Below, one piece after another: positions 3,479 through 26,836 of a DNA stretch of 33,644 nt. Made by a program: the position numbers and the translations under genes. The notes below the pieces were generated by a model. It searched no databases. It was given only the letters and a program-made list of their open reading frames with translations, and was not told where the DNA came from. This stretch comes from a virus. Its lineage: Duplodnaviria; Caudoviricetes. The first letter of the stretch is position 1. Every line of letters begins with the position of its first letter. Location of the stretch: the IMG/VR virus record IMGVR_UViG_3300005512_000168, positions 1-33,644 of that record. One strand, given 5' to 3'.

Positions 3479-3599
3479 TGATTGCCTTTTGTCAGTTTTC
3501 AGAAACCATGTGGATATGGATTTGCGCAGTATAAACATGGGCAAGGCAGCAGAATTACTACTGAAGCTAGCGGCGTGGTGATCTGGTCACTGATCCCAT

Positions 3600-3647
3600 A
3601 AAAAACACCCCTCATGGTGCGCAGATCCAACGGGATGCGTGAGGGGT
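3600..3647 (-). terminator. Intrinsic terminator between the convergent arms
   Basis: Stem ACCCCTCAT (3607-3615) / GTGAGGGGT (3639-3647), with an A-tract on its left that reads as a U-tract on the minus strand. Confidence 0.55.
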
Positions 3648-3689: not shown

Positions 3690-4037
3690 TCATCTATCAT
3701 CACCATCGCCAAGTAGTGTACCTCTACGTTGTCGGTCAGCCAGTTTGTCGATATTGGTCTTGGCTACATCAGACAGCTTGAACCCTAGCTGTGTGGCTAT
3801 CTCTGCAACGCTCCAAAGGCAATCACCCAGTTCCTTTTTAGCTGCAGCAACATCTATCTGCTTATTGTCACCCCTTAACTTTACCTTTGTAAACTGACTG
3901 GTTAGCTCTCCAGCCTCTTCATGCAGCAGCATCATTGGGTACATATCATTCCTGTAGTTTGCTGTCTTGTGCGCCAGATATTGATATTCATCAAGTTCCA
4001 TTGATTCTTCCTTAGTCAGTAATGAGTCCTGGGTCAT
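3690..4037 (-). CDS. mazG: MazG-like NTP pyrophosphohydrolase
   Basis: EEAGE...KELGDCLW motifs and C-terminal NIDKLADRQRRG..GDGDDR. AGGAG RBS before ATG 4037. Confidence 0.85.
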   Translation of the reverse strand: MTQDSLLTKEESMELDEYQYLAHKTANYRNDMYPMMLLHEEAGELTSQFTKVKLRGDNKQIDVAAAKKELGDCLWSVAEIATQLGFKLSDVAKTNIDKLADRQRRGTLLGDGDDR

Positions 4038-4319
4038 TGCTTTTTCTCCTTGGTTGAGTTGGCAGGTGTTTGGAGTGATTATTTTCGTCCTCACAATACT
4101 GGCATCGTGATTGGTCTAAATGCCGCCAGCCACACCATCGGCACCCGTCATATTTAGGGTCAGATTCGTGAAGCGGCTCATTCATCCTCTTTCTTCTCCT
4201 CTGCTTGATTGGGTCTCGGCATTTTCACCTCGAAATAACGCATCCCATTCGCTATACATTGCTGATAGCTTTGATCGGAGCACGACCATCGGCAGTTATC
4301 GCAGCAAGGCGTTGTAGTT

Positions 4320-5839: not shown

Positions 5840-5877
5840 AATTTACCCCTTACAGTAAATGACCTTAGAGAAAAGTG

Positions 5878-5926
5878 TGTGCCAGCCAACTAAGGTATTG
5901 GTGTTCAGCCGCTAAGCCTAGGCACA
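5878..5926 (-). ncRNA. C4-antisense-like cloverleaf RNA upstream of the HNH gene
   Basis: Minus strand: closing stem TGTGCC(T)AG/CTGGCACA with two inner hairpins. Loop ACCTTAG is complementary to downstream CTAAGGT and to TAAGG in the RBS. Confidence 0.6.
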
Positions 5927-5943
5927 GATTCAATATACATGGC

Positions 5944-10074: not shown

Positions 10075-10077
10075 TAT

Positions 10078-10278
10078 ATGTATTCAGATTGCTTTTTAAC
10101 CAATGATTATGATGGCATGTGCTGCGTCACAGGCTGTGATAGTCAGGTTAAGTTATCTTTTGATGTGAACGGTGTAATCCATTGTTTTGTGATGGATGAA
10201 GTGGAGGCGAAAGACTTGTTTGGTTGCCTTAATGGTGCCTTGAATTATTTGAGCGGTGAGCACAATGAGGTGGTTTAA
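10078..10278 (+). CDS. Hypothetical protein (66 aa)
   Basis: Strong AAAGGAG RBS before ATG 10078. Confidence 0.6.
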   Translation: MYSDCFLTNDYDGMCCVTGCDSQVKLSFDVNGVIHCFVMDEVEAKDLFGCLNGALNYLSGEHNEVV

Positions 10279-10861
10279 GCATGACTCAGACGCGCATCGT
10301 GACGCGAAGTTAAAAAAGCTGATGATGTCGTATGGCCTAGAGGGGTATGGGCTTTATTGGTACTGTCTGGAGTTGATAACTGGAGATGTGAACGAGAAAA
10401 AGTACACGTTTTCGCTTGAGCATGATGCAGATGTGATTGCTTTTGATACTGGATTATCACCAGAAAAAGCAATGGACATAATGAAGAAAATGGTTGATCT
10501 TGAGTTGTTTGAATCAACGGATGGAGTGATTAGCTGCTTAAAGCTGGCCAAAAGACTGGATCAGTCTATGACATCCAACCCGATAATGAGGAAAATCATT
10601 GATGGAGTCAAAAAACAAGGAGTTATTTCTAATAGTCATGACGCGGTCATGATTCAGTCATGTGAAAGTCATGATGCAGTCATGCAAGAAGAGACTAGAT
10701 TAGATAAGATTAGATTAGATAAACAGCATATAGCTGAAAACTCTCCTGCTTCCGACAAGTCGAAAGCTATCCCGTACCAGAAGATCATAGATCTATATCA
10801 TTCACTAACAATAACTGAAATAGGGATTAGTTATGGCGCGAAAATATGTAGAGGTAGATGA
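10265..10861 (+). CDS. Replication initiator-like protein 1 (Lin1244/DUF4373-like N-terminal wHTH), probably C-terminally truncated
   Basis: N-terminus MRWFKHDSDAHRDAKL..L...YGLEGYGLYW..LE, internal iteron-like repeats and RLDKIRLD linker. Ends shortly after IPYQKIIDLYH. Confidence 0.7.
   Translation: MRWFKHDSDAHRDAKLKKLMMSYGLEGYGLYWYCLELITGDVNEKKYTFSLEHDADVIAFDTGLSPEKAMDIMKKMVDLELFESTDGVISCLKLAKRLDQSMTSNPIMRKIIDGVKKQGVISNSHDAVMIQSCESHDAVMQEETRLDKIRLDKQHIAENSPASDKSKAIPYQKIIDLYHSLTITEIGISYGAKICRGR
10635..10684 (+). repeat. Iteron-like array: five GTCATG at exact 11-bp spacing
   Basis: GTCATG at 10635, 10646, 10657, 10668 and 10679, followed by AT-rich TAGAT/AAGAT repeats. Confidence 0.75.
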
Positions 10862-10973
10862 CGAAAAGTGGACACAGCTTAAAGAGTTCGCAAAGAAAAA
10901 TGGCAGAACCTTGTCTGGTCAACTGGATGAGATTCTGAAAAATTGGCTTGCAAAGCAGTCAAAAAAGTCATAA
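10833..10973 (+). CDS. Arc/Mnt-like ribbon-helix-helix regulator 2 (46 aa)
   Basis: MARKYVEVDDEKWTQLKEFAKKNGRTLSGQLDEIL; 19/46 identical to 9799-9939 without gaps. Confidence 0.75.
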   Translation: MARKYVEVDDEKWTQLKEFAKKNGRTLSGQLDEILKNWLAKQSKKS

Positions 10974-10982
10974 TGTTTTAGT

Positions 10983-11032
10983 CGCGGCTAGGGAATGCAA
11001 CCCGAACCTCTGAACCTAGACAGACTGCCGCG
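10983..11032 (+). ncRNA. C4-antisense-like cloverleaf RNA upstream of initiator 2
   Basis: Closing stem CGCGGC(T)AG/CTGCCGCG with hairpins GGG/CCC and TCTG/CAGA. Loop CCTAGA is complementary to TCTAGG (11043) and CTAGG (11058, overlapping the RBS). Confidence 0.65.
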
Positions 11033-11070
11033 CATTTTTTTATCTAGGCAATTTCTACTAGGAGAGATTG

Positions 11071-11739
11071 ATGCACTACTACCAATTTAATATTGGCGAC
11101 TACAAGAGCCACACCGACCACCTAGATCCTTTGGAAGATATAGCTTACCGGAGGATGATAGATTGGTTGTATCTTCACGAAAAACCGCTCCCAGATGATG
11201 TTAATCAGATAGCCAGATTGATTAACATGCGTTCGCATAGCGATTGTATAGCGATTGTAATGCAGGAGTTCTTCGAGACTACCTCAGAGGGTCTTATCAA
11301 TAAGCGCGTTTCACTAGAGATTGATGCTTTTCACAGTAAAGGTGAGAAGGCTAGAGCTTCTGCAAAGGCTAGATGGGATAAAGTTAAAGCATTGAAGGGC
11401 AAGGGTAATGATGCGAACGCATTGCGAGCGCAATCCGAAGGCAATGCTAACCATAAACCAATAACCAATAACCATAAACCAATAACCAAAGAAAAGAAGG
11501 GGGGTAAACCCCGATTCTCGCCACCAACGCTAGAAGAGGTTAAGCAAGAGGTTTCAGAAAAACTCTACCGTGTGGACCCTGAAGCCTTCTTTTTTCACTA
11601 CGAGGGCAACGGCTGGATGGTGGGCAAAAACAAAATGAAGAATTGGAGGATGGCTCTTGCAAGCTGGAACAAGCGAGAGGGTCAGAACCAAAAGCAGAAA
11701 GGCACTGGATTCAACCGCCTGATGGAGTTGGCGCAATGA
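11071..11739 (+). CDS. Replication initiator-like protein 2 (YdaU/DUF1376 family)
   Basis: MHYYQFNIGDY...T.HL..LE..AYRR, NHKPITNNHKPIT linker and C-terminal FSPPTLEEV...F..HYE.NGW.VGKNKMKNW domain. Confidence 0.85.
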   Translation: MHYYQFNIGDYKSHTDHLDPLEDIAYRRMIDWLYLHEKPLPDDVNQIARLINMRSHSDCIAIVMQEFFETTSEGLINKRVSLEIDAFHSKGEKARASAKARWDKVKALKGKGNDANALRAQSEGNANHKPITNNHKPITKEKKGGKPRFSPPTLEEVKQEVSEKLYRVDPEAFFFHYEGNGWMVGKNKMKNWRMALASWNKREGQNQKQKGTGFNRLMELAQ

Positions 11740-12113: not shown

Positions 12114-12315
12114 ATTGTGTGAAGAGTTAAGTGATGATCTTAGTATGATGAACTTTGCTTATGAGGAAAAGCAGAGGTTGGATGCTGAGTATCTGGAAAT
12201 GCTGAAGGGTGTTGCTGCTGGCAAAAAAGCGCCAGATTTTCCGCAAAAGATAACTATGGAGGAAATTCTCGCAGAGGCTGGGGTTTCTGCTAAGCGATAC
12301 GATGGAGGTGTATAG
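12100..12315 (+). CDS. Hypothetical protein
   Basis: GGAG RBS; overlaps the upstream gene. Confidence 0.55.
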   Translation: MDWNKLCEELSDDLSMMNFAYEEKQRLDAEYLEMLKGVAAGKKAPDFPQKITMEEILAEAGVSAKRYDGGV

Positions 12316-12488
12316 TGCCTTGGCCTACAGGTGATCGCCATCATAAGGCGCGGCTATCAGATCAGGACGTAGAGCTAATGCGTCAATTGAGAGAGGGCGG
12401 CATGACCTACAGAGAGATAGCGGAGAAGTTTGAGTGCTCTCTGTGGACTGCGCGATCAATCGTCACATACGCGTCAAGATATCGCTAA
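12315..12488 (+). CDS. Small HTH DNA-binding protein (57 aa)
   Basis: GTG start with GGAGG RBS; GDRHHKARLSDQDVELMRQLREGGMTYREIAEKFECS. Confidence 0.75.
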   Translation: MPWPTGDRHHKARLSDQDVELMRQLREGGMTYREIAEKFECSLWTARSIVTYASRYR

Positions 12489-12510: not shown

Positions 12511-12741
12511 ATGGGAAAAATAAAAATACCATATCAAGAGCTACTTGATAACGGATTTACAAAACACGGGAACTGGTACATCAGAGGCAATGTCTCTATA
12601 AATCTATTGGGCCAGTCATTATTGCATGGTGGCAATCCGTCGTTTTATATCGACATGGATGAATTTGAGCCACATGGAGATATAACATTGAAGGACGTAA
12701 TGGCTTTGTCTGAAGTTATGGCGAAGCTAACGGGATATTAG
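12511..12741 (+). CDS. Hypothetical protein (76 aa) abutting the first attC-like site
   Basis: ATG 12511; stop lies 2 nt before the GCCCAAC core. Confidence 0.5.
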   Translation: MGKIKIPYQELLDNGFTKHGNWYIRGNVSINLLGQSLLHGGNPSFYIDMDEFEPHGDITLKDVMALSEVMAKLTGY

Positions 12742-12743
12742 AA

Positions 12744-12807
12744 GCCCAACGACCATGTTTTGCGGCGTGTAGCGCAGCGGAACGTCCGAAACAACTACTT
12801 GTTATAT
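12744..12807 (-). other. attC-like recombination site 1 (64 bp)
   Basis: Minus strand ATATAAC-AAGTA-GTTGTTT-CGG-A-CGT-TCCGCTGCGCTAC-ACG-CCG-CAAAAC-ATGGTC-GTTGGGC: R'', 5-nt spacer, L'' with extra bases, L', 6-nt spacer, R'. Confidence 0.85.
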
Positions 12808-12829
12808 TGCGATTTGAACGGTTGAGAAT

Positions 12830-13585
12830 ATGGAAAAAGTAACGATAGAAAAAGCTGACCTTTATTGTGGCGACTGCCTGGATGTTTTCCCGTTAGTTGG
12901 AGGCGTTGACCTAATTTTAACCGACCCACCATATTCATCAGGCGGGGCATATAGATCAGACAGGACTCAAACAACAGACAAGAAATACCAACATACAGCA
13001 GAAACCACTCGCAGTTATGCGACTTTTAGCGGCGACAACAGAGATCAGCGTAGCTTTGAAAAATGGTGCGCGGAATGGATGCGCGGATGCCTTGATATAA
13101 CAAATGAGGGTGGAGTTATTGGTGCATTCATAGATTGGAGGAATATTGCTTCGGTAATTGATGCAATGCAGGTTGCTGGATGGGTTTACCGTGGGGTCGT
13201 GCCTTGGCACAAAGGAGAAGATCAACGACCGCGGAAAGGGTGGTTTAGGGCTAATGTTGAATATGTAGTTCTTGGTTCGGCTGGGCCGATGCTGACAGGG
13301 CATAAGGCTGACGGATTATGCGCGGATGGGGTTGTATATTGCAGGATCAACGGAAACGAGAAATTACACCAGACAGGAAAGCCGATAGATTTGATGACTT
13401 ATTTGATGCAGGTGCGCGGAGATTGGGATGTTGTTTTTGATCCTTTTATGGGTAGCGGCACAACTGGAGTAGCAGCGTTGAATTTAGGAAAAAAATTTAT
13501 CGGCGTTGAAAAGGAAAAACATTATTTTGATGTTGCCTGCTCGCGCATCAAGGCGGAACGCGCTCAAGGTAGATTAGCAATATAA
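12830..13585 (+). CDS. DNA N6-adenine/N4-cytosine methyltransferase, beta class (cassette-borne)
   Basis: DPPY precedes HQTGKP and DPFMGSGTTG; stop TAA lies within the TAAC core. Confidence 0.9.
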   Translation: MEKVTIEKADLYCGDCLDVFPLVGGVDLILTDPPYSSGGAYRSDRTQTTDKKYQHTAETTRSYATFSGDNRDQRSFEKWCAEWMRGCLDITNEGGVIGAFIDWRNIASVIDAMQVAGWVYRGVVPWHKGEDQRPRKGWFRANVEYVVLGSAGPMLTGHKADGLCADGVVYCRINGNEKLHQTGKPIDLMTYLMQVRGDWDVVFDPFMGSGTTGVAALNLGKKFIGVEKEKHYFDVACSRIKAERAQGRLAI

Positions 13586-13666
13586 CGACCTGATAAGCGG
13601 GCCGCAACGGGCATTACAGAAAACACGGCGGAGCATCACGGCTCCGTCTTTATTAACTTGTTAGAT
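13580..13666 (-). other. attC-like recombination site 2 (87 bp)
   Basis: Plus strand ATATAAC...ATAAGCGGGCCG / CGGC(T)CCG(T)CTT(T)AT...GTTAGAT; unpaired bases all lie in the right arm. Confidence 0.85.
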
Positions 13667-13677
13667 TGAGGGTTATT

Positions 13678-13878
13678 ATGGAAACGAAACAGGTAGAGAT
13701 TGGTGCAACATGTCATTTGACTAGCACAGTTTATAGCGGCGGTAGCATGGATGTTTATCTGGACTACATAGAGCATTCAGCGGACCACTGGCACAGCGAC
13801 ACAGAAACCAGTCTGGATATCGACAAGGATAAGGCGGTTGAGATAATTAACTTTCTCAAAGATGCCTTTTCAATCTAA
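13678..13878 (+). CDS. Cassette-borne hypothetical protein (66 aa)
   Basis: GAGG RBS, ATG 13678; stop TAA lies within ATCTAAC. Confidence 0.7.
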   Translation: METKQVEIGATCHLTSTVYSGGSMDVYLDYIEHSADHWHSDTETSLDIDKDKAVEIINFLKDAFSI

Positions 13879-13958
13879 CGCCTGAGCTGAGCCGCCAGCC
13901 ACGGATTGCCTTTGGGAAAAGGCAGCTTATTCTGGTCGGCTCTAGCGTATTGTTATAA
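13873..13958 (-). other. attC-like recombination site 3 (86 bp)
   Basis: Plus strand ATCTAAC-GCCTGA-GCTGAGCCGCCAG...CTGG(T)CGGCTC(T)AGC-GTATT-GTTATAA, with inner hairpin TGCCTTT/AAAGGCA. Confidence 0.9.
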
Positions 13959-13983
13959 TGCAGGGCTTTATTGGAGGTAGATT

Positions 13984-14163
13984 TTGAAAATAGGAAAAGT
14001 TAGCATGATGGTAGAGGTTGACGGAAAGGCTTGCGTGGTGGTGCTGCCAAAAGAAAGAATGCTGATGTTGGTGGACTTGGCAGCGAGTTTAAGCGATTCA
14101 GGAAAGCTCCCAGTTAAAAAACTTGGCAGCGAGTATAAATTTGAAACTATAGAAGCATTATAA
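13984..14163 (+). CDS. Cassette-borne hypothetical protein (59 aa)
   Basis: GGAGG RBS, TTG start, MKIGKVSMMVEVDGKACVVVLP...; stop TAA lies within TTATAAC. Below the ORF-track cutoff. Confidence 0.7.
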   Translation: MKIGKVSMMVEVDGKACVVVLPKERMLMLVDLAASLSDSGKLPVKKLGSEYKFETIEAL

Positions 14164-14176
14164 CAGTGTGCTATAC
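14158..14176 (-). other. Candidate attI/attG-like cassette entry site
   Basis: Minus strand GTATAGC-ACACT-G/TTATAA: degenerate L box, 5-nt spacer, R core, and no hairpin arm. Confidence 0.5.
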
Positions 14177-14414
14177 GGAATTGAAGCCTGAACCACTACA
14201 ACTTGACCTTGCCTTTCTCAAAGAATGCACCAAGCACAGCAGCTACGACGAAAAGGCACAGATCTGGAAGGATTGGAAAAAGAATTTTGAGGAAGGTATG
14301 GAGGCAGCGCAGAAACAGGGGTTGCCAGATTATAAGATTCAAAATGCTGGCAGATTCAGAGCAAACTCCCTCTTACGGGAGCGGATAGCACTTAGGAAGG
14401 AGTTGAGAGGGTGA
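14166..14414 (+). CDS. Hypothetical protein (start uncertain)
   Basis: Open frame overlapping the ninB start; no clear RBS. Confidence 0.45.
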   Translation: MCYTELKPEPLQLDLAFLKECTKHSSYDEKAQIWKDWKKNFEEGMEAAQKQGLPDYKIQNAGRFRANSLLRERIALRKELRG

Positions 14415-15611: not shown

Positions 15612-16874
15612 ATGTCCGGTGGACTAGAGCAGGTATCAGTCAGTGACTTGGTGCCCTACGTTAATAACGCCAAGACACATCCAGAGGAGCAGGTCTTAAA
15701 AATTGCGTCCTCTATCAAAGAGTTTGGCTTTAATGCTCCTATTTTGGTTGATGGCAATAATGGGATCATTGCAGGTCACGGTAGACTGCAAGCAGCAAAG
15801 AAGCTGAAGTTATCAACAGTCCCAGTAGTACGGCTGGATCATTTATCCGAAGCGCAGAAGAAAGCCTATATACTTGCAGACAATCGCTTGGGTGAAGTTG
15901 GCGGTACAGATTGGGATATGGATCTGGTCTCTCTTGAGCTTCAAGACTTGCAGGAGATGGATTTCGACATTGATCTCACTGGCTTTGAGATTGATGACAT
16001 TATCCCTGAGGAGGTCGAAGGGCTGACCGATGAGGACGATGTACCGGACGCACCAGAGGAACCAATCACCAAAGAGGGTGATGTTTGGATACTTGGGCGA
16101 CATCGGCTGATGTGTGGCGACAGCACCAGTATTGACGCGGTGGAGAAACTGATGGATGGGCGGAAGTCGGACATGGTGTTTACCGACCCCCCTTATAATA
16201 TTGGAAGTGAAAACAAGGGTGTTGCTCAAGACGTATCAAAAGCACATAAAGACCTTATGGCGGCTGATTGGGATAAAGATTTTCAAATTGAGGTGCCTCT
16301 AAATTGTGCGCTTGCTGTTATGGCGAAGGATTGCGCGGTTTATGTCTGCACGTTACATCATTTGGCTGGAAGGATTTGGGCGTGGATGAAGGAATGGTCA
16401 GATCATCACTCGTTCTGCGTGTGGAGTAAGCCAGACCCGATGCCTTCGCTGACAAAGCGACACTGGACATGGGATACAGAATTAGTCCCGTATGCAACGC
16501 GCGGAAAACACATTTTCAACGCAGAAAATGGACAGCACTCGCCAAGCACTTGGCGTATCAACAGGCAACAAGGCGGAGAAAAAACTGGCCACCCGACACA
16601 AAAGCCGGTAGCCGTTCCTCAGCATGCAATTGAGAAAAGTAGCCGCAACAACCAAATAATTTTAGACCTATTCGGCGGCTCAGGCTCAACGCTTATCGCC
16701 TGCGAAAAGACAAACCGTGACTGCCGCATGATGGAACTCGACCCAAAATACTGCGATGTAATCATCAAGCGATGGCAGGACTACACAGGCAATCAAGCAG
16801 TACATGAAGCTACTGGTGCTCTGTACGACAATATCCAGAATGTTGATATAATTCAGGAGGTTGCTAATGGCTAA
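15612..16874 (+). CDS. ParB-like N-terminal domain fused to a beta-class DNA methyltransferase
   Basis: PYVNNAKTH..FGF..PIL..IIAGHGR..ADNR, then DPPY, HPTQKP and DLFGGSGST. Confidence 0.92.
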   Translation: MSGGLEQVSVSDLVPYVNNAKTHPEEQVLKIASSIKEFGFNAPILVDGNNGIIAGHGRLQAAKKLKLSTVPVVRLDHLSEAQKKAYILADNRLGEVGGTDWDMDLVSLELQDLQEMDFDIDLTGFEIDDIIPEEVEGLTDEDDVPDAPEEPITKEGDVWILGRHRLMCGDSTSIDAVEKLMDGRKSDMVFTDPPYNIGSENKGVAQDVSKAHKDLMAADWDKDFQIEVPLNCALAVMAKDCAVYVCTLHHLAGRIWAWMKEWSDHHSFCVWSKPDPMPSLTKRHWTWDTELVPYATRGKHIFNAENGQHSPSTWRINRQQGGEKTGHPTQKPVAVPQHAIEKSSRNNQIILDLFGGSGSTLIACEKTNRDCRMMELDPKYCDVIIKRWQDYTGNQAVHEATGALYDNIQNVDIIQEVANG

Positions 16875-25935: not shown

Positions 25936-26382
25936 ATGGCTGCTCAAACTTCAGCAGGTACTACTATTGCAATCACCGCTACAGGGCCATCTACGTATGA
26001 TGACAACGTAACTACGGGCTTTCCTTCTCTGACATTTACGACAGTGGGTGAGGTCGTGGATGCTGGCGAATACGGGCGCACTTATAACCTCGTTACCTAT
26101 AACCCGCTTGATTCTCGCAAGACAGTCAAGAAGAAGGGATCTTATAACGATGGCACAATGACGCTTCAGGTAGCGCGTGATCCAGACGATGCAGGACAGG
26201 CGATTCTAGTAACCGCTTTGGATAGTGATAACGACTACTATTTTGAGGTTACATTGCAGGATGGAACAGTACAGTATTTTGCTGCACAGGTTCTCTCCTA
26301 TACTACAGGCGTGGGGTCTGCTGACCAGATTACTAATGCCACCATTCAGATTGAGTTGACTAACTCAATCATTGAAGTTTAA
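25936..26382 (+). CDS. Major tail tube protein, copy 1
   Basis: GE..D.GEYGR...LVT..P...R...K.KGS.N.G motif; AGGAG RBS. Confidence 0.8.
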   Translation: MAAQTSAGTTIAITATGPSTYDDNVTTGFPSLTFTTVGEVVDAGEYGRTYNLVTYNPLDSRKTVKKKGSYNDGTMTLQVARDPDDAGQAILVTALDSDNDYYFEVTLQDGTVQYFAAQVLSYTTGVGSADQITNATIQIELTNSIIEV

Positions 26383-26398
26383 TAATAGGAGGTAGAAC

Positions 26399-26836
26399 AT
26401 GGCTGCTCAAACTTCCGCGGGCACTACGATTGAGATTAGTGCCTCCAATCCAGCCACATATAACGCGGCTGGTTTTGGTGCTCTCTCTTACTCAGTAGTT
26501 GGTGAAATTGTTGACGCTGGCGAGTATGGACGTACTTACAATCTGGTAACTCATAACCCACTGGATTCTCGTAAAACAGTAAAGAAGAAAGGCTCCTACA
26601 ATGATGGGACGATGACTTTACAGGTAGCACGCGATCCCTCTGATGCTGGTCAAGCTATTTTGGTGACTGCTTTGGATAGCGATTCAGATCATTCGTTTAA
26701 GGTTACTCTGCAAGACGGTACGATTCAGTATTTCGCTGCACAGGTTCTCTCTTATACGACTGGCGTGGGTAGTGCCGATCAGATTACAAACGCAACCATT
26801 CAGATTGAATTGACGGATGCAATTGTAGAGGTTTAA
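26399..26836 (+). CDS. Major tail tube protein, copy 2
   Basis: About 83% identical to copy 1 by hand alignment; AGGAGG RBS. Confidence 0.8.
   Translation: MAAQTSAGTTIEISASNPATYNAAGFGALSYSVVGEIVDAGEYGRTYNLVTHNPLDSRKTVKKKGSYNDGTMTLQVARDPSDAGQAILVTALDSDSDHSFKVTLQDGTIQYFAAQVLSYTTGVGSADQITNATIQIELTDAIVEV

Follow-up and report, generated by a model that had tools for sequence, protein, structure and literature searches.

Cassette arrays in phages

Clusters containing two or more attC sites with no integron integrase gene (intI) nearby are called CALINs (Cury 2016, PMC4889954), and 17 of them have been reported among 10,705 phage genomes (Qi et al. 2023, PMC9892861). Integrase-less attC clusters in phages, some of them carrying DNA methyltransferases, are already published in that report. 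The integron integrase (IntI) cleaves the AAC of the bottom strand of the site, the extra bases lying on the other arm, and cassettes facing the promoter are described as unobserved in mobile and chromosomal integrons (PMC5027507), a statement that concerns the orientation of insertion and not the layout of a gene relative to its attC. Secondary sites, known as attG, have a GWT core, to which hotspots add CRGM at +6 to +9; insertion into them can yield SALINs and small CALINs, and the domestication of cassettes through attC loss has been suggested (bioRxiv 10.1101/2022.09.11.507474).

The phage genome and the search for an integrase

The window (the whole stretch of DNA analysed, 33,644 nt) is the contig IMGVR_UViG_3300005512_000168, a tailed phage with a 123-nt terminal repeat. 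Its genes, named through Pfam and PHROGs, include those for head and tail, Erf, an exonuclease, ThyX, MazG, lambdoid replication, NinB and NinG. Matches of the terminase and NinG point loosely to proteobacterial phages, and the sequencing runs that contain part of the region are mostly labelled seawater, aquaculture, biofilm or aquatic. Neither Pfam nor PHROGs named an endolysin, a holin or a CI-type repressor despite the lambdoid layout, which bears on the completeness and the lifestyle of the phage.

The original prediction was of a closed genome without a tyrosine recombinase. The second half of this claim held: no tyrosine recombinase was found among the 59 ORFs (Pfam, PHROGs) or by motif scan, a six-frame PF00589 search of the genome gave no match at E<=10 (the positive control matched 14 of 14 genomes), and no resolvase or serine recombinase (PF00239) was found in the phage genome. 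By Pfam, PHROGs and the six-frame search, the array has no intI nearby, as in a CALIN, and lacks the intI of a complete integron, in a genome whose completeness is estimated by CheckV at 49%, leaving room for missing genes. Closure stood only in part, since the terminal repeat has to be set against that estimate; a 691-codon tail-gene frame is continuous across the junction of the contig ends, as fits a circular genome. Given 49% completeness by CheckV and no named endolysin, the genome is likely, though not certainly, closed.

Some other features of this genome were observed. Two Rfam int-alpA matches lie at 5863-5928 (-) and 10981-11048 (+), with 43 and 34.3 bits against a gathering score of 35.8, each just 5' of a gene (an HNH endonuclease and the DUF1376 replication gene). 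Positions 10256-11739 hold a tandem pair of initiator-like ORFs (Lin1244_N, DUF1376), and the replication module is variable too, contigs of runs X1, X4 and X6 jumping from ~10075 to 11533. Tail-tube genes also occur as a tandem pair (25936-26836, both phrog_158), and a second methyltransferase, fused to a ParB-like domain, is encoded at 15612-16874, immediately ahead of terS; in the relatives L003, L005 and L006 the methyltransferase portion of this gene is different or interrupted.

Three attC sites in the nin region

The array contains three imperfect palindromes, each with the R''-spacer-L''...L'-spacer-R' layout and AAC/GTT cores of an attC site, read on the minus strand and weak in site 2:

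12744..12807, minus strand (top strand), attC site 1; model 17.8 bits, E 0.017; polarity 8.5 vs 7.0
13580..13666, minus strand, attC site 2, the weakest of the three; model 11.8 bits, E 0.81; polarity 7.0 vs 6.0
13873..13958, minus strand, attC site 3; model 52 bits; polarity 9.5 vs 6

These sites were searched for with a home-built covariance model, made from 11 attC sites outside the window, each oriented by its gene: phage TJE1 supplied three, a bacterial MAG five, and the other three are class 1 plasmid sites. The model gave 10 matches at E<=10 in the 33,644 bases, the best three being sites 3, 1 and 2, which recovered to the base the palindromes that had been predicted by eye from the sequence; the fourth match reached 9.7 bits, and those above 10 bits fell exclusively on the minus strand. 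Taken singly, site 2 lacks significance (E 0.81), and the score of site 3 is inflated, because six of the 11 training sites were reached via likeness to it. In free folding, sites 1 and 2 were no better than shuffled sequences (z from +0.07 to -1.39), and site 3 had a z of about -2.5. A first-pass scanner detected two of the three sites, with an average of 0.53 hits per genome in shuffles (n=15). Another match of the model, in L060, falls within a methyltransferase coding sequence and was dismissed as chance.

Site 3 is close in layout and sequence to the attC of the class 1 cassette cmlA: 22 nt of its minus strand are 95.5% identical to the attC behind cmlA, on the cmlA coding strand. Besides this cmlA attC end, nothing but short, weak matches came from BLAST searches of phage and plasmid records with sites 2 and 3 and with the entry site described below. 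A pattern scan with the arm of site 3 found no viral contig and one bacterial genome, a Gemmatimonadaceae MAG, of which the 3174-nt contig L054 carries a cassette array with five similar attC sites of normal polarity; no integrase was seen by ORF inspection of this short contig. The MAG is not taken as a clue to the host.

All three 10-bp inverted repeats that had been predicted to bracket the genes lie at the predicted coordinates and are perfect, and the two ends of one cassette do match better than the two ends of one site, as proposed: beyond GTT/AAC, own ends agree at 7/7 positions, against 4-6/7 in the six cross pairs. The chance of three such matches is ~4e-6, counting for each match just its three non-consensus positions. 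Reading the palindromes as terminators, or as other RNA elements of the nin operon, would account for the terminator-like hairpins inside sites 2 and 3; it is practically untenable, since such hits number 9 against 5.9 +/- 2.8 in shuffles, an Rfam scan found no family at the array, and both the repeats across genes and the allele breakpoints described below are left unexplained. With three attC sites within 1.2 kb, the array consists of attC-type sites bounding single-gene cassettes and is a genuine CALIN in a phage, of an inverted kind.

Polarity and cassette units

The three cassette genes all lie on the plus strand, which is the bottom strand of the sites, the attC top strand being the minus one. 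In all three sites the extra-helical bases stand on the arm before the plus-strand GTT, opposite the plus-strand AAC; arm-scoring calls plus the bottom strand in three of three sites and makes the opposite call for the gene strand in eight bacterial control sites (three class 1 and five MAG; L051, L052, L054), and the plus-strand fold of each site is 0.8-1.9 kcal/mol better than its minus-strand fold. The minus-strand model hits and the arm that bears the extra bases mean that each hairpin belongs to the gene after it, with G/TT on the minus strand (AA/C on the plus strand). The genes are thus antisense to their attC sites, and the crossover is at the left AAC, which for site 1 is plus-strand AA/C at 12749/12750. 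Cuts after 12749, 13585, 13878 and 14163 delimit three units, 836 + 293 + 285 = 1414 bp:

12750..13585, cassette unit 1, 836 bp; hairpin body 1 and the methyltransferase gene, with its own 10-bp inverted repeat
13586..13878, cassette unit 2, 293 bp; the 66-aa gene
13879..14163, cassette unit 3, 285 bp; the 59-aa gene

An array of IntI-type cassettes had been predicted, and its attC sites and single-gene units stand; the conventional polarity assumed with it, with integration at plus-strand G/TT, does not, given the minus-only hits, the extra bases on the wrong arm and the short allele described below. The conventional reading (gene, then attC) draws on the fact that every site reads AAC...GTT on the plus strand and that three stop codons overlap AAC. 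It is hardly tenable, because the model hits are confined to the minus strand, the extra bases sit on the wrong arm, hairpin body 1 is removed in the short allele and no fourth hairpin lies 3' of gene 3. Recombination of ordinary cassettes through their top strands was also considered and rejected, because the reversed arm carries the extra bases themselves. Nor are the genes arranged as in a complete integron, where cassette genes lie on the attC top strand and are driven by a Pc promoter; here all of them are on the bottom strand.

Published phage arrays were re-read in the same way (n=3), and two of the three are inverted. In PH101, 4/4 model hits are on the plus strand and 14/14 annotated genes on the minus strand; in MW202573, the four hits above 18 bits are on the minus strand and the genes on the plus strand. 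The TJE1 array has normal polarity, so inversion is not universal in phages. The latter array (L048 1-1520) begins at the first bases of its record with a GTT box. TIGR02249 had no match in TJE1, PH101, MW202573 or two virus contigs. The text of PMC9892861 makes no mention of gene-versus-attC inversion, which its figures and Dryad file may show, and no publication on inverted phage cassette arrays was found in literature searches that left out most subscription journals.

Cassette genes and flanking genes

The cassette genes, the site on their right and their neighbours are as follows:

12315..12488, plus strand, small HTH gene of the backbone, left flank; Pfam HTH matches
12511..12741, plus strand, c0, a 76-aa gene preceding the array; GCCCAAC box at its 3' end
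12830..13585, plus strand, orphan N6/N4 DNA methyltransferase, 251 aa; PF01555 E 4e-28, phrog_67
13678 (ATG) to 13878, plus strand, gene 2, 66 aa; four unnamed homologs, 50-69%
13984-14163, plus strand, gene 3, 59 aa; six homologs, 71-83%
14158..14176, minus strand, entry site; a 7-nt box (weak, inverted) separated by a 5-nt spacer from G/TT at 14164-14162
14181..14414 (start 14181 or 14166), plus strand, o82, backbone gene of the right flank, before ninB/ninG

The methyltransferase has phage homologs at 40-46% and, from what is known of orphan phage methyltransferases, probably shields phage DNA from restriction. The homologs of genes 2 and 3 are few and metagenomic, and the Atlas gave no named family for either; a structure lead from gene 2 to DUF3276 is below the naming threshold. 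The phage contig L059 encodes a homolog of gene 3 (66%) with no attC nearby, suggesting that this gene is phage-type cargo.

No family was found for c0 by Pfam, PHROGs or further search. In run X13, one contig carries, 5' of c0 and immediately before 12498, an attC-like arm whose last bases are GTTGGGC, and the N-terminal extension of P0017, a c0 homolog, fits the sequence that precedes c0 in X13. With the GCCCAAC box at its 3' end, c0 is a former cassette, its own attC now lost from this genome, and holds the oldest position of the array. Neither this former cassette on the left nor the entry site on the right was part of the original prediction. Farther out, the HTH gene has 71% homologs in L002/L004 that abut an o82 homolog directly, array and entry site being absent; homologs of o82 itself, at 43%, occur in L002/L004/L019/L020, also with the entry site absent.

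Alleles of the array

The original prediction proposed that related phages be aligned for empty or differently filled alleles, and both kinds were found. The comparison covers seven distinct runs out of 24 listed, with likeness set to 85%; missing coverage over the cassettes in X1, X2, X3, X6 and X13 was not used as evidence. In X4 and X10 (two of the seven runs, from one study) a contig links position 12747 with 14162 and leaves out 1414 bases, which is the exact sum of the three units, and all three hairpin bodies are lost along with the three genes. The loss of hairpin 1 agrees with what reversed polarity predicts, and the joint is where a crossover at the G/TT of R' would leave it, with a short flank and from one study. 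Three letters of the joint fit either side, and its shorter side is 27 nt, below a threshold of 30-31 nt; with this side, 85% likeness and one study, the joint is not proof by itself.

Other contigs carry other cassettes. Those of X3 and X13 depart from the window beyond 12751 and continue as different attC-like arms; in X13 the window is also entered before 14159 from a different gene end. In the overlapping metagenome loci L039/L043, whose upstream genes are unrelated, another cassette occupies the same right-hand site; its gene encodes 93 aa, it has an 8-bp inverted repeat of its own, and its attC, also inverted, scores 21.4 bits. Together with the short allele, these show that gene content varies at this position. 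The model detected no array either among the remoter relatives (L003-L006, L019-L021 and L023; best score 11.1 bits) or among five further virus records. In L043, an extra short AAC...GTT palindrome (~3489-3600 in gene direction) lies 5' of the alternative cassette, with the next AAC almost adjoining; it may represent a cassette that is decayed or has no gene. Close by, 37 nt match window positions 4017-4053 reversed.

The flank to the right of 14164 is constant across alleles, being joined to other cassettes in L039/L043 and X13 and to c0 directly in X4/X10, and the conserved site at 14158-14176 is likely the entry point. An attI site consists of two boxes with a 5-nt spacer. The entry site is not a hairpin, and its likeness to such boxes is weak (a 5-of-7 box that 90 of 1069 genomic GTT equal in score), so that an attI-like status is weakly supported. 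It has the GTT core of attG and may be an attG-type secondary site turned hotspot; its original right half, replaced by the first cassette, is seen in no allele. Pattern search and BLAST did not find this site in other phage records: the pattern had two viral matches, one near-identical to the window and one chance, and six metagenomic matches, of which L039 and L043 are informative, L040 and L041 near-identical to the window, and L042 and L044 chance. L041, 99.95% identical to the window over 8019 nt, may have been drawn from the same sample and does not count as independent support.

The main rival to an external IntI is that the block is relic cargo, assembled by IntI elsewhere (e.g. in an integrase-encoding phage or prophage) and now varied by homologous recombination in its flanks through Erf, NinB and NinG. 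This phage has all three proteins, the hairpin of c0 is lost, and L043 is 98% identical over 111 nt to the right of the site with unrelated genes upstream, as recombination in the flank gives. We regard this explanation as unlikely, because five types of allele break at the same AAC boxes, the three inverted repeats remain perfect and several different cassettes directly adjoin c0 in near-identical backbones. Much less probable still is that the units are moved by a different tyrosine recombinase of the host (Xer-like) or by hairpin-driven slippage during replication, their likeness to attC being ancestral or incidental. No IntI is seen, the entry site is no more than a two-box core and the 3 nt shared at the joint could be used by slippage; yet site 3 has a 22-nt stretch and its whole layout in common with a class 1 attC, and slippage accounts for loss but not for different cassettes, with their own matched ends, at one position.

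A probable borrowed integrase

From the observed anatomy, polarity and boundary-exact alleles we infer an enzyme, its source, its present activity and the expression of the cassettes as follows. The array is a row of three integron-type cassettes, with genes opposite to the attC strand; an externally supplied integron integrase probably inserts and excises them, acting on folded plus strands. This IntI would come from outside the phage, most likely from the host and possibly from a co-resident prophage or plasmid; during infection it would bind the folded plus (bottom) strand and cut at AA/C. Circles would be inserted at the 14162-14164 site or between attC sites, pushing older cassettes leftward, with c0 the oldest and fixed through the loss of its hairpin. 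Contigs, as used here, cannot reveal such excised circles. The activity of a bacterial enzyme on phage sites has a precedent, since IntI1 in E. coli recombined five of six phage attC sites tested (Qi et al. 2023, PMC9892861); two of the recombined sites are from PH101, whose array is inverted. The entry site lies downstream of the genes, so no Pc-like promoter there can drive them, and a promoter scan was at chance level (13 vs 11.4). Being inverted, the genes would instead be readable along with the rightward replication/nin transcript of the phage, each from its own ribosome-binding site.

The array offers part of phage mosaicism a site-specific route, by which small accessory genes of the nin region are exchanged as exact cassette units. 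A more tentative idea, which we put forward only as a possibility, is that phages keep a mirror-image cassette pool and a docking site for borrowed IntI, reversed polarity filtering out host cassettes. Phage cassettes would be read from the operon of the phage. Host cassettes, many of them anti-phage, would land antisense and go unexpressed there, and a phage cassette placed behind a host Pc would likewise be silent. The phage population would then be actively reshuffling the genes of its nin region by means of the adaptation machinery of its host. Anti-phage cassettes are the subject of two reports (bioRxiv 2024.07.02.601686 and 2024.07.02.601719). Inverted polarity also bears on the creation of cassettes, the step at which the orientation of gene versus attC is set, since phage-type cargo carries the opposite one.

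Comparison with known systems

The array shares with bacterial integrons (e.g. class 1 cmlA) the R boxes, the 5/6-nt unpaired spacer, the L boxes with extra bases and the G/TT crossover, as well as the matched ends of each cassette and the position of the newest cassette next to the entry site. It differs from them in that it has no intI and that its genes are antisense to attC, and the entry site, unlike bacterial attI/Pc, is 3' of the genes relative to transcription.

At attG sites, IntI likewise puts cassettes at a short GWT core outside integrons, and the domesticated c0 resembles the attC loss suggested for such insertions; those insertions were shown for ordinary cassettes entering E. 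coli chromosomes without strand bias (bioRxiv 10.1101/2022.09.11.507474), whereas in the phage one site is reused by many cassettes and all of them are inverted.

The closest systems are the phage CALINs of Qi et al. (TJE1, PH101, P12002L and ctTUS972/MW202573; PMC9892861), which equally have at least two attC sites, single-ORF cassettes, no intI and orphan N6/N4 methyltransferases as cargo. As far as that report describes them, the empty and alternative alleles, the fixed entry site and the domesticated cassette are seen only in the present locus. To the 2023 report it adds natural short and differently filled alleles of one locus; integrase-less phage attC clusters were already known, and what is new here is an inverted CALIN with natural short and alternative alleles.
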